From NCBI GenBank assembly GCA_963789955.1, contig CAWBMV010000030.1, positions 1 through 64,000 on the forward strand: a stretch of DNA of 64,000 bases. The letters are read 5' to 3'. The DNA comes from an uncultured Candidatus Rokubacteria bacterium (GTDB lineage: Bacteria > Methylomirabilota > Methylomirabilia > Rokubacteriales > CSP1-6). Positions 21,324 through 24,502 of this stretch are shown here, one piece after another (the first letter of the stretch is position 1; each line of letters begins with the position of its first letter). Both the position numbers and the translations under genes were made by a program. Below the pieces are notes generated by a model. The model saw only the letters and a program-made list of their open reading frames with translations, was not told the DNA's origin and searched no databases.

Positions 21324-21443
21324 CTACGCCTTGGCCTTGGCGGCGGAGCGCCGCGGGCAGGCCTTGTGATACCAGGTCGAGCCGAGCTTGACGTGATTGC
21401 CGTTCTTTCGGATCTTCAGCTTGCACTTGGGACACGTTCCCAT
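21324..21443 (-). CDS. 39-aa basic putative zinc-finger micro-protein
   Basis: AAGGAG RBS, TGcTATAAT extended -10 at 21480-21488; MGTCPKC...WYHKACP (CxxC-x19-HxxC). Confidence 0.72.
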   Translation of the reverse strand: MGTCPKCKLKIRKNGNHVKLGSTWYHKACPRRSAAKAKA

Positions 21444-21508: not shown

Positions 21509-21847
21509 GTGACGGACTGCGTCTTCTGTCGCATCGTCGCGCGCCAGAGCCAGGCCGACATCGAGTACGAGGACGACGCGGTCCTGGCATTCAAGGACAT
21601 CTACCCGAAGGCGCCGATTCATCTGCTCATCGTTCCCAAGCGCCACGTCAGCTCGATTATGGCGATGGAGCCCGCGGACGTCGAGGTCGTCGGCCGGTGC
21701 TTTCTGGCGGCCCGCAAGATCGGCGAGGCCAGGGGACTGGCCGAGAGGGGATATCGGCTGCGCGTGAACTGCGGCCCCGAGGGCGGACAGGTCGTCTATC
21801 ACGTGCACGTCCACTTCCAGGCCGGCGGGCGGGTAAGCGGCGCCTAG
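21509..21847 (+). CDS. HIT family (Hint-like) nucleotide-binding protein
   Basis: DCVFCRI, AFKDIYPKAPIHLLIVPK, GQVVYHVHVH histidine triad. Confidence 0.93.
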   Translation: MTDCVFCRIVARQSQADIEYEDDAVLAFKDIYPKAPIHLLIVPKRHVSSIMAMEPADVEVVGRCFLAARKIGEARGLAERGYRLRVNCGPEGGQVVYHVHVHFQAGGRVSGA

Positions 21848-21859
21848 TCGAGGCGCTGA

Positions 21860-23353
21860 TCAAGCGGAAGTGGCCGCAGTCTTCGCTTCGAGCGGCAACC
21901 CGGCGTCCGCCCAGCTGCTGAGCCCGCCCTTGAGAATTCGCACGTCGCGATAGCCCAGGTCGCGAAGCTGGCGCGCCACCCGGGCGCTCGTGGCTTCGTC
22001 GGGTCAGGAGCAGTAGGCAACGACGGTGCGATTCACGTCGAAGTCGAGGGCGCGTGCGCCCGCCTTGAGCTCTTCGGGCGCGACATGGCGGGCGTCCTGA
22101 ATCCTCACCGGGCTCTTGGTGTACGTTGGTCCGTCGCGAACATCCAGAATGACCGGCGGCGTTTCCGGTGACGCCTCGATGAGCCGCATCACCTCGGCCG
22201 GCCGGATGCGATAGCGGTTGCGCTTCGCGCGCCGCGCGAGGAACACACCGACCGCCGCGAGGATCACCACCGCCACGACCGCGGCGATCGGCGCCCACGG
22301 GAAGGGGCGAGGAGGCGGGTTCTTCGCTTCGGCCATCATGCGGCGCACGTCGGTCAAGTCGGGGAGGAGGCGGTTCGCTTCCTCGAAGTGCTTCTCGGCG
22401 CGGCCGTAGCTGCCGGAGAAAAACTCTTCGAGCCCTGCGTGCCACGCGGCGTTGAATCGACTGGCTTCGTCGAGCTTGACGCCGCTGCCCTTCAGGAACT
22501 CGCGCACCGCTGCCGACGGGATGATGAAGTTGAACCCCTGGACGATGGCACCCTGGCTCCCGGTGTCGAGGCTCACAAACGTCAGGACGCCGAGAACCCC
22601 GCCGTCCGAGCCGACGGCGGGGCCACCGCTGTTGCCCCACGCCGCCGGCGCGTCGACCTGGATCACCGGCTGATTGGCGACGTCTTGCTTGAAGCCGGAG
22701 ATCGCGCCGTTGGTCACCGAGGCCTCGACCTTGGCGGATGCGTTCAGGAGCTCGTGACTCAGCACCACGCCCGGGAAGCCCAGGATGTGAATCTTGTCGC
22801 CGATCTTCGCATTCGAGGAGTCCCCGAGAGACAGAGCCGGCATGTCGGCGGCTTCGAGCTTCAGGAGCGCGAGGTCGCGGCCCGACATCGCCTCGCCGGC
22901 GACCGGCGGGCTGTACTTGGACACCGTCGCGCCGAGCCGCATGCCGTTCGCGAGAAGCACCGAGATCGATGGATCGAGCTTGATCTTGGCCCGCGCCACC
23001 GCCGCCGCGAAGTCCCGATCGCTCACGTCGGGGCACGCCTGACGGACGCCTCGCTGCAGCAGCTCCTGCGCGATCTCCTCCTTGGGCTGGTGTGCCGGCG
23101 AGACGACGTGGCCGTTCGTGACGAGCCACCCGTTCGGATTGATGAACCACCCCGTCCCAGTTTCGCGGAAGGGTGCGGGTGACACCTGCTGCTTGCCGCC
23201 GGCCGGGCAGGTCACGGTCACTTCGGCGGCAACCTCCGAGACGACGAGCGCCACCGCTGGCTTGGCACGGAGCAAGACCTCCTGGACGGAGGGGGCGGCA
23301 TCGGCGAGACCAGGAACCGCGAGGAACAGCAGGCTCGCGACCCACGTGCGCAT
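21860..23353 (-). CDS. Exported trypsin-like serine protease - TM - rhodanese fusion; probable selenoprotein (in-frame UGA at 22006-22004)
   Basis: Signal peptide; triad TNGHVV / RDLALLK / GNSGGP; TM helix; rhodanese ILDVR..VVAYCS-UGA-PDEATSARVARQLRDLGYRDVRILKGGLSSWADAGLP continues in frame to TGA at 21862-21860. Confidence 0.85.
21973..21987 (-). other. Candidate bacterial SECIS hairpin
   Basis: GCGCC-CGGGU-GGCGC stem-loop starting 16 nt after the UGA, with G in the apical loop. Confidence 0.55.
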
Positions 23354-23367
23354 TCTCGAAATTCTAT

Positions 23368-23399: not shown

Positions 23400-23434
23400 A
23401 AAAGAAGGCTCCAGGGGGGCGGCCCCTGGAGCCT
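23398..23434 (-). terminator. Rho-independent terminator after the repeat-protein gene
   Basis: 12-bp stem AGGCTCCAGGGG/CCCCTGGAGCCT, 5-nt loop, followed on the minus strand by TCTTTTTT. Confidence 0.85.
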
Positions 23435-23459: not shown

Positions 23460-24374
23460 TTACTTCATCAGGCCCATCGCCTCGACGGCCTTCGACTTGG
23501 CGGTGTCCATGTTCCCGGCCTTGCAGGCCGCCTCGGCCTCGCGGACCAGCTTCGTCGCGTCGCTACCCGACGAAGACTTGGCACCGGCGAGCGACCGCGG
23601 AGCCTGAACGTCCTGACCAGCTCGCGGAGCCTGGATGTCCTGACCCGCACGCGGGGCCTGAATGTCCTGACCAGCCCGCGGAGCCTGGATGTCCTGACCC
23701 GCACGCGGGGCCTGAATGTCCTGACCAGCCCGCGGAGCCTGGATGTCCTGACCCGCACGCGGGGCCTGAATGTCCTGACCAGCTCGCGGAGCCTGGATGT
23801 CCTGACCCGCACGCGGGGCCTGAATGTCCTGACCAGCTCGCGGAGCCTGGATGTCCTGACCCGCACGCGGGGCCTGGATGTCCTGACCTGCGCGCGGCGC
23901 CTGAATGTCCTGACCAGCGCGCGGAGCCTGGATGTCCTGACGCGAACCGGCTAGCGACCGGGGCGCCTGAATGTCCTGACCACGCGGAGCCTGGATGTCC
24001 TGACCCGTCCGCGGGGCCTGAATGTCCTGACCGGCACGCGGGGCCTGGATGTCTTGACCCGCCCGCGGGGCCTGGATGTCCTGGCCGGCGCGCGGAGCCT
24101 GGATGTCCTGACGCGAGCCCGCGAGCGACCGGGGCGCCTGGATGTCCTGCCAGCTACGCGGGGCCTGGACGTCTTGACCACGCGCGGCGCCTGGATGTCC
24201 TGGCGCGAGCCGGCGAGCGACCGCGGCGCCTGAACGTCCTGCGCGCTTCGAAACCTTCTTCAGCATGGCTTGCGCCTGGCTGACTTCGACCGGGCACTTG
24301 GTCTGCGCGTCGGCGACAGGCGCCAACGTCGCGACGACTGCGGCACTCATGATCACTGCGAAAAATCTCTTCAT
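23460..24374 (-). CDS. Secreted protein with ~23 QD(I/V)QAPR(AG) repeats between two Cys-containing helical segments
   Basis: Signal peptide MKRFFAV..ADA|QTKC; repeat variation is almost all synonymous in this frame; compensating indels at ~24180-24250 hide two more units. Confidence 0.88.
   Translation of the reverse strand: MKRFFAVIMSAAVVATLAPVADAQTKCPVEVSQAQAMLKKVSKRAGRSGAAVARRLAPGHPGAARGQDVQAPRSWQDIQAPRSLAGSRQDIQAPRAGQDIQAPRAGQDIQAPRAGQDIQAPRTGQDIQAPRGQDIQAPRSLAGSRQDIQAPRAGQDIQAPRAGQDIQAPRAGQDIQAPRAGQDIQAPRAGQDIQAPRAGQDIQAPRAGQDIQAPRAGQDIQAPRAGQDIQAPRAGQDIQAPRAGQDIQAPRAGQDVQAPRSLAGAKSSSGSDATKLVREAEAACKAGNMDTAKSKAVEAMGLMK
23580..24241 (-). repeat. Coding tandem repeat, 27-bp unit with 54-bp higher-order dimer
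   Basis: Alternating units CAGGACATCCAGGCTCCGCG(A/G)GCTGGT and CAGGACATTCAGGCCCCGCGTGCGGGT; occasional 39-bp units (..SLAGSR). Confidence 0.95.
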
Positions 24375-24502
24375 CGGTCTTTCCATTTCCCTTCGTTCTG
24401 GTTTGGTTTGGTTCGATCCGTTCACCGCGCCAACCTGCTTCGCGCTCACCCCCTCGGCGTCGAGGTCGACTCGGTCGCTACAACTCTTGGATGGAGATTA
24501 AG

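Follow-up and report, generated by a model that had tools for sequence, protein, structure and literature searches.

HtrA/S1C serine proteases, such as DegS, DegP and DegQ, are defined by a C-terminal PDZ domain and by their homotrimeric organization. In another field, that of bacterial selenoproteins, the groundwater MAGs of Deng et al. 2026 (Cell Rep) reportedly include one Methylomirabilota MAG with 63 predicted selenoproteins.

Rhodaneses are represented among the predicted selenoproteins. A CxU rhodanese-like selenoprotein (form 3) is 'predicted with high confidence' (PMC13188914 Table 1) and a CxU rhodanese is also listed as COG0607 form 2 (PMC9312934). Published work on DedA-rhodaneses does not present them as selenoproteins, and calls it unclear what their rhodanese does (PMC10127716, PMC12893004). 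No protease-rhodanese fusion is present in the selenoprotein table sections of PMC13188914, and term searches of PMC12013277 and of the supplement of PMC13326102 gave no matches. In the literature searched we have found no description of either a protease-rhodanese or a DedA-rhodanese selenoprotein; such proteins may nevertheless be listed in Haft and Tolstoy 2025, in Deng et al. 2026, in the supplements of either or in BSepDB. Here we describe a gene in which the recoding of a UGA codon is real and well supported, and which places a known domain in an apparently undescribed membrane-protease fusion.

An in-frame UGA inside a rhodanese domain

The gene lies on the minus strand of a 64,000-nucleotide stretch of DNA (the window; contig CAWBMV010000030.1 of assembly GCA_963789955.1) from an uncultured Candidatus Rokubacteria bacterium. 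Its open reading frame starts with the ATG at 23353 and runs for 449 codons until a TGA at 22006-22004, just after VVAYCS; as noticed in the preliminary description, the same frame stays open for 47 further codons (PDEATSARVARQ...LKGGLSSWADAGLP...) up to a stop TGA at 21862-21860. The internal UGA is codon 450, in the context YCS-U-PDE, and the read-through product is 497 aa long. The rhodanese fold is completed in this product, as had been proposed (Pfam Rhodanese, residues 389-483, E 6e-11). The features of the gene and its flanks are given in Table 1.

Table 1. Features of the protease-rhodanese gene and its flanks, in positions of the window
Feature	Position	Strand	Basis or remark
Putative signal peptide, residues 1-19	23297..23353	-	basic N-terminus, hydrophobic core, A-D-A site
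Trypsin-like (S1C/HtrA-fold) protease, PDZ-less	22484..23296	-	Pfam Trypsin_2 66-256, E 1e-21
TPR-like three-helix stalk, residues about 299-344	22322..22459	-	helices 299-312, 316-329, 334-344
Single TM helix, residues about 353-375	22229..22297	-	one hydrophobic peak, then basic RRAKRNR
Rhodanese-fold domain, residues about 385-490 (needs read-through to be complete)	21884..22201	-	
C-S-U motif	22004..22012	-	C448 (canonical rhodanese Cys position), S449, UGA = U450
SECIS-type hairpin GCGCC-CGGGU-GGCGC	21973..21987	-	5-bp stem, loop CGGGU
True stop TGA	21860..21862	-	12 nt from end of convergent HIT gene
Intrinsic-terminator-like hairpin ending upstream gene	23406..23434	-	12-bp stem and T run
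-10-like hexamer TAGAAT	23361..23366	-	ends 7 nt before ATG
HIT gene, convergent	21509-21847	+	

For the analysis of the UGA column we pooled 190 loci, of which 30 came from relatives, 80 were the best among 191 species-representative matches and another 80 the best among at least 506 metagenome matches. The column was covered in 190/190, and 146 contexts were distinct over 300 nt; this sample is biased to the close kin of the query, its rows are related to one another, and the species-representative matches are nearly all from Rokubacteria/Methylomirabilota. The codon is TGA in 123 of the 146 distinct contexts, TGC in 6 and another one in 17 (AGC in 12, and CGC, GAA, ACG, ACC and TCG in one each). 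The TGC rows correspond to at least four separate changes on the tree described below, and Cys is also found in this column as YCAC in members of the P0003 cluster. Moreover, coding is conserved downstream, with 42-61 codons after the UGA in 122 of the 123 TGA homologues and 168 in the other one. To judge from these alignments, the UGA and the frame behind it are conserved beyond chance. One row with AGC (L032) comes from an unpublished genome, G025, which also enters the tallies of relative loci, of selA/selB and of sel genes given here.

Of the 120 best homologues in the protein database, 113 stop at YC[ST], that is, the gene is misannotated as a truncated protease in these closest entries, and the rest are two full-length proteins (P0003 with Cys and P0005 with Arg) and five shorter fragments. 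Members of the Cys form are automatically annotated as 'S1-C subfamily serine protease/rhodanese-related sulfurtransferase', and therefore the fusion architecture is already in the databases without Sec. In P0136, P0276 and P0277 the motif is YGTC, the canonical Cys being lost and the second one kept, and in L139 it is YDTS, with Asp for the canonical Cys and Ser at the Sec column. As far as these genes tell, some lineages can do without Sec and even without the first Cys (Asp in L139, Gly in P0136).

Because frameshifts are numerous in the assembly, where another rhodanese gene also has one or more in-frame TAG codons, a sequencing error or a pseudogene, with a TGC or TGG misread as TGA or mutated to it, had to be considered. 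This explanation is refuted by the TGA occupying the same column in those 123 contexts, which come from many assemblies and include L172, a metagenome contig 98% identical to the query, and its probability is practically nil. The earlier argument that the other errors in the window are only indels is weakened by the same TAG, and it is not needed. The TAG belongs to a gene on contig C37 (near 104309, plus strand) for a standalone rhodanese with a signal-like N-terminus and the motif U-x-C, the reverse of C-x-U, and in this assembly it is downstream of that motif. Contigs from public runs (two DNA and two RNA libraries, 88% likeness) cover the UGA in X2-27, X15-11 and X16-19, and only TGA letters are found at 22004-22006 among the 40 rows listed (there are 126 further rows); the RNA-library contigs are no demonstration of transcription, and the depth spike at 21968-22038 is explained by paralogues having the same UGA-hairpin block. 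A global reassignment of TGA, as in a Trp or Gly code, was rejected because TGA is an ordinary stop here and in 54 of the 123 read-through homologues, and because the codon column alternates with Cys.

The genome contains the complete Sec machinery that the preliminary description had asked for: selA, selB and the tRNA-Sec gene (selC) lie within 5 kb on contig C1 and selD is on contig C6, all of them over curated cut-offs, and selD has an in-frame UGA of its own. Among 61 genomes of the order, the source genome included, selA was found in 55 and selB in 53. In genome G023 (98% complete, 220 contigs) no selA, selB or tRNA-Sec was found despite the presence of several UGA-plus-hairpin genes, an absence that a single missing contig could explain, as these three genes are clustered. 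The sel genes, the alternation of TGA with Cys and the SECIS-type hairpin all support the proposal that the UGA encodes Sec at the position of the second Cys, and the gene almost certainly specifies a 497-aa single-pass membrane selenoprotein with Sec inserted at UGA 450.

The hairpin downstream of the UGA

In the model of bacterial SECIS elements the stem has 4-16 bp, the loop 3-9 nt with a G in position 1-2, the spacing is 16-37 nt and the MFE at most -7.5 (PMC13188914 Fig. 2). Exactly as first reported, the hairpin at 21987-21973 starts 16 nt past the UGA; its loop lies 21 nt past it, and it fits the model (5 bp, 5 nt, CGGGU, 21 nt, -7.6 to -9.3 kcal/mol), although the energy does so only just. 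Compared with shuffled sequence it does not rise above chance (z about -0.5 to +0.5), and for each spacer length the genome has 36-78 occurrences of a loose version of its geometry (TGA, spacer, 5-bp stem and G[G/U] loop), so that the significance of the hairpin is comparative. When folded in isolation, its probability is 0.25 at 40 nt, 0.75 at 45 nt and near 0 at 60 nt, the latter because of a competing helix.

The comparison of homologues gives a clear pattern. The hairpin is intact (five Watson-Crick pairs and a loop G followed by G/U) in 122 of the 123 TGA genes, in 0/6 TGC genes and in 1/17 of the other non-TGA genes. Furthermore, the stem codons of the TGA genes are frozen at synonymous sites (AGC 123/123, GCC 123/123, GTG 118/118, GCG 122/122), the residue after the stem is encoded only by C-starting codons (R/H/L/Q, 123/123), whereas in non-TGA genes both the stem codons and this residue vary, and the changes seen in the loop retain the G. 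A maximum-likelihood tree was built from 80 of the 146 rows with the Sec column masked, the 66 omitted being metagenome TGA rows and partial genes. On this tree the TGA is gained or lost 9-10 times and the hairpin 8-9 times, and the two are out of step in one row of the 80, L093, a GAA gene beside a near-identical TGA gene. Frozen in TGA genes and decayed in the others, the hairpin behaves as the Sec signal that it had been taken for, and it offers a clean natural SECIS that constrains the protein sequence and decays once the UGA is lost.

The stem is invariant within the protease fusions and by itself silent on pairing; the evidence for compensation comes from distant standalone rhodaneses, which were preselected for a TGA. 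Genomes of families f7 and f9 contain 11 protease fusions among 34 loci with YC[DT]-UGA-PDE, with a perfect stem in 10. In 40 further regions, chosen because their rhodanese match contained a TGA, the motif is found in 38, mostly DedA-rhodanese fusions and standalone rhodaneses, with the hairpin in the same place. Over 68 distinct rows, 98.5% of the stem cells pair, all slid controls being lower, and 10 cells show a compensatory change (C-G to U-A seven times, C-G to G-C once, and G-C to C-G twice), which represent perhaps three or four events as the cells are related.

Sec read-through is generally inefficient, and it could be argued that the UGA is mostly a real stop, the 449-aa form being dominant and selenium supply setting the ratio between tailed and tail-less forms. 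The marginal hairpin (-7.6 kcal/mol) with its competing helix and the lack of detectable sel genes in G023 would agree with this. However, an end at residue 449 breaks the fold right after the strand that bears C448, the Cys, Ser and Thr homologues yield the full-length form only, and the 42-61 downstream codons are strongly conserved; we consider a predominant stop very unlikely.

The protease, its membrane anchor and the tails of its relatives

Pfam matches, hydrophobicity and a structural model agree with the architecture first put forward, in which a signal is followed by a PDZ-less HtrA-like protease, TPR-like helices, a TM segment and the rhodanese. The domain is a predicted protease with the catalytic triad H82, D160 and S242 and the GNSGG motif, and the triad motifs are kept in 99 of 114 full-length TGA homologues according to a motif search. 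An invariant pair, C49/C107, likely forms a disulfide. No PDZ domain was matched in the read-through protein by Pfam at E 0.1, helices following the protease in the model, and the TPR_14 match to residues 304-342 is weak (E 0.02, below the Pfam cut-off). The basic stretch after the TM helix would place the C-terminus inside by the positive-inside rule. In an AlphaFold2 model obtained from a 27-row alignment (mean pLDDT 81.7) the protease, stalk, helix and rhodanese parts are visible, and its best Foldseek matches are DegQ, DegP, DegS and HTRA1. A three-copy prediction of residues 20-348 reached 0.80 versus 0.13 for the best control, a result that may reflect solved HtrA trimers already known to the predictor; the runs gave 0.00, 0.80 and 0.80, with a run agreement of at least 0% and a pLDDT of at least 76. 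Of 30 solved pairs 20 passed the mark, as did 1 of 23 single chains (both counts are only rough here). In the alignment, 25 of the 57 residues of the predicted trimer interface are invariant versus 34 of 272 elsewhere.

A profile search identified the signal-protease-TPR-TM unit as a wider module, shared over residues about 10-385. Among the 75 scanned of the 150 representatives listed, chosen for length and with their tails counted by eye, 47 carry an FHA tail and 6 a rhodanese match, and SHOCT, zinc-ribbon and F5/8 domains appear in single ones. The Atlas cluster of the Trypsin-TPR-TM-FHA proteins is commonest in Acidobacteriota, and no functional paper about them was found in the literature searched. 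The Ser-for-Sec paralogues of family f1 add a cNMP-binding domain (11 of the 12 AGC rows are long), which is also present in one TGA gene (L103). The source genome itself has a Sec-less paralogue (C20:127260-129200, motif YCTS) with a C-terminal cNMP-binding domain, frameshifted in the assembly. In family f7, paralogues L249, L257-L259, L272 and L273 combine YC[DG]S with a C-terminal PilZ-like domain, in which the RxxxR motif of PilZ domains is not visible. When all paralogues are counted, the protease-rhodanese family is present in 150/158 genomes of f1, 13/21 of f7 and 0/21 of f4 (tallies that the unpublished G025, G243 and G135 enter, no conclusion resting on them), and it is near-universal in one Methylomirabilota/Rokubacteria family (f1).

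From its surroundings, the gene looks monocistronic. Sequence similar to the upstream terminator is also found 5' of homologues, and 55 of 82 close homologues have a similar -10-like hexamer in the 130 nt that precede the mature N-terminus; this hexamer suggests an own promoter and a leaderless or near-leaderless mRNA. A function based on an operon was ruled out by the terminator and the convergent HIT gene. Gene order around orthologues is conserved: in 80 loci, a HIT gene is found within 4 kb in 43 (the query for this tally was an antisense frame, so it counts as a DNA marker only), an M16 peptidase in 32 and the N-terminus of a repeat protein in 24. The gene directly upstream (23460-24449, minus strand) encodes a secreted protein of about 19-25 tandem 9-residue QDIQAPRAG units with short Cys-containing ends, a possible substrate of the protease. 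At 21324-21440 (minus strand) there is a small basic protein with CxxC and HxxC motifs, which is beside the HIT gene in 42 of the 80 loci.

A receptor-like architecture such as this one, with a predicted trimer that would bring three tails together, could also work from the outside in, so that binding of a periplasmic substrate or self-cleavage would activate the Sec-rhodanese, or release it, towards cytoplasmic targets. Nevertheless, the alternative tails (FHA, cNMP, PilZ) are inputs and not outputs, and the gene has no conserved operon partner between its terminator and the HIT gene, and we regard an outside-in flow as improbable.

The C-x-U rhodanese and its possible role

In alignment with solved rhodaneses, C448 matches their YC, where the active-site strand ends; this is the canonical position, and U450 comes two residues later. 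The loop, C-S-U-P-D-E-A-T-S, is two residues longer than in 6mxv and fits neither of the types Cx4R/T or Cx5R of active sulfurtransferases and Cdc25-type phosphatases (PMC10135228). A single-sequence fold of the domain (pLDDT 58) gave no match with Z of at least 5 in a wide structure search. Its best NCBIfam match is NF041203, rhodanese_LYCAU, 'rhodanese-related (seleno)protein' (E 3e-23), with scores below the equivalog cut-off of 115 (81.7 bits for the whole protein and 84.2 for the domain alone).

Other carriers of related motifs were observed. DedA (VTT)-rhodanese fusions with C-x-UGA-PNE and the identical hairpin make up 28 rows from this phylum (within L312-L349) and occur twice in the genome itself, on C21 near 8084 (minus strand) and on C12 near 488230 (plus strand), where the assembly has frameshifts in both. 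L333:1393 is a DedA protein whose rhodanese domain is doubled in tandem, and both copies end at a UGA motif; L342:1316 has a C-x-U rhodanese followed by nucleotide-cyclase-like sequence (recognised by eye, with no Pfam match on the fragment); and L350:1388 is a U-x-U rhodanese, a form also present in PMC1976440.

In the mechanism that we propose, SelB would bind the hairpin 16 nt past the UGA and Sec at residue 450 would complete the C-x-U rhodanese. The exported PDZ-less HtrA-fold protease, followed by the TPR stalk and one TM helix (the domains are observed and the topology is deduced), would probably form a homotrimer at the membrane. The C-x-U rhodanese would be a regulatory input and not a housekeeping sulfurtransferase: depending on the redox or sulfane-sulfur level of the cytoplasm, its Cys/Sec pair would be reduced, form a selenenylsulfide or carry a persulfide. 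The three tails, clustered together, would relay this state across the membrane (or to cytoplasmic partners), tuning envelope proteolysis and taking the place of the PDZ control of DegS/DegP. We infer this regulatory step with about even confidence, and the complete picture, in which a Cys/Sec redox switch in the cytoplasm controls a PDZ-less trimeric protease of the envelope, could equally well turn out right or wrong.

A coupling of periplasmic proteolysis to sulfur/selenium chemistry had been put forward in the preliminary description; the comparative evidence leans to a regulatory over a metabolic role, because the cytoplasmic slot mostly holds readers of intracellular signals and because Sec has been lost without losing the fusion. 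Counting against it, the cNMP and PilZ additions represent few independent events, L103 combines a TGA with the cNMP domain, the PilZ shows no RxxxR, the DedA fusion and the exported standalone C-x-U protein equally fit a portable catalytic module, and a single-pass TM helix offers no evident signal path. The C-x-U domain could be a membrane-tethered enzyme, such as a sulfur/selenium transferase or reductase, for which the protease would be an anchor or a co-worker in envelope repair, with no allosteric coupling. C448 is retained in 123/123 TGA genes, the same domain occurs on DedA transporters and standalone, the UxU (L350; PMC1976440) and UxC (C37) forms exist and selenoproteins are mostly assumed to be redox enzymes (PMC13188914), all of which would suit an enzyme. 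However, the same slot is an FHA binding domain in most relatives, Sec has repeatedly changed to Ser/Thr with the fusion retained, and the loop is non-canonical; the tethered enzyme is to us a serious possibility, albeit a somewhat unlikely one.

If the regulatory reading is extended to the whole module, interchangeable sensor tails (FHA as a reader of phospho-Thr, Cys/Sec rhodanese, cNMP, PilZ) would steer PDZ-less trimeric receptor proteases from the cytoplasm. The Sec form, a near-core gene in Rokubacteriales, would be a selenenylsulfide switch through which envelope proteolysis responds directly to the sulfane sulfur or redox state of the cytoplasm, and the same module would also gate DedA. 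This is a speculative and rather unlikely scheme; if true, a major soil lineage would use selenium for a kind of inside-out signalling not described so far. Correcting the annotation brings a membrane protease, as well as DedA transporters, into the set of Sec-rhodanese carriers and points to the use of selenium in envelope signalling of soil and groundwater bacteria. Close relatives naturally supply Sec, Cys, Ser and Thr forms, so that the contribution of Sec to the rhodanese fold is directly testable.

The protein resembles the HtrA/S1C proteases DegS, DegP and DegQ in fold, in the H-D-S triad with GNSGG, in the putatively exported active site and perhaps, if the three-copy prediction is right, in forming a trimer, but in place of the PDZ domain it has a C-terminal TPR stalk, a TM helix and a cytoplasmic domain, and it scores 62.6 bits against a cut-off of 416 for NCBIfam TIGR02037. 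It shares its ectodomain with the Trypsin-TPR-TM-FHA proteins, known from automatic annotation only, from which it differs in the tail (FHA, SHOCT, zinc ribbon or others in them). The trypsin-like serine protease selenoprotein of the GOS survey is likewise a serine protease with predicted Sec, although in that protein Sec takes the place of a Cys within the COG5640 protease domain itself (PMC2398784), and here it belongs to a separate rhodanese across the membrane. DedA-rhodanese fusions (COG0586 and PF00581, e.g. PA1209) carry the same rhodanese subtype after their last TM helix, and in this phylum they have the UGA and the same hairpin too, with a transporter replacing the protease. The closest relatives of the tail itself are in the NF041203 family (form 3), with the same C-x-U-P-x-E-x-T-S-A-R-V-A loop and the hairpin in the same place; a standalone member, L318, with a signal-like N-terminus and 186 bits, which passes the cut-off, is 44% identical over 91 aa. 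The preliminary description had not recognised a characterised system here, and this holds for the fusion, which we have not found described, but not for the CxU rhodanese domain, which is an already predicted family. The NF041203 model represents a short standalone protein, whereas in the present gene it forms the predicted cytoplasmic end of a protease anchored in the membrane, and as the CxU selenoprotein domain had already been predicted, its fusion to the protease-TPR-TM unit is the new part.
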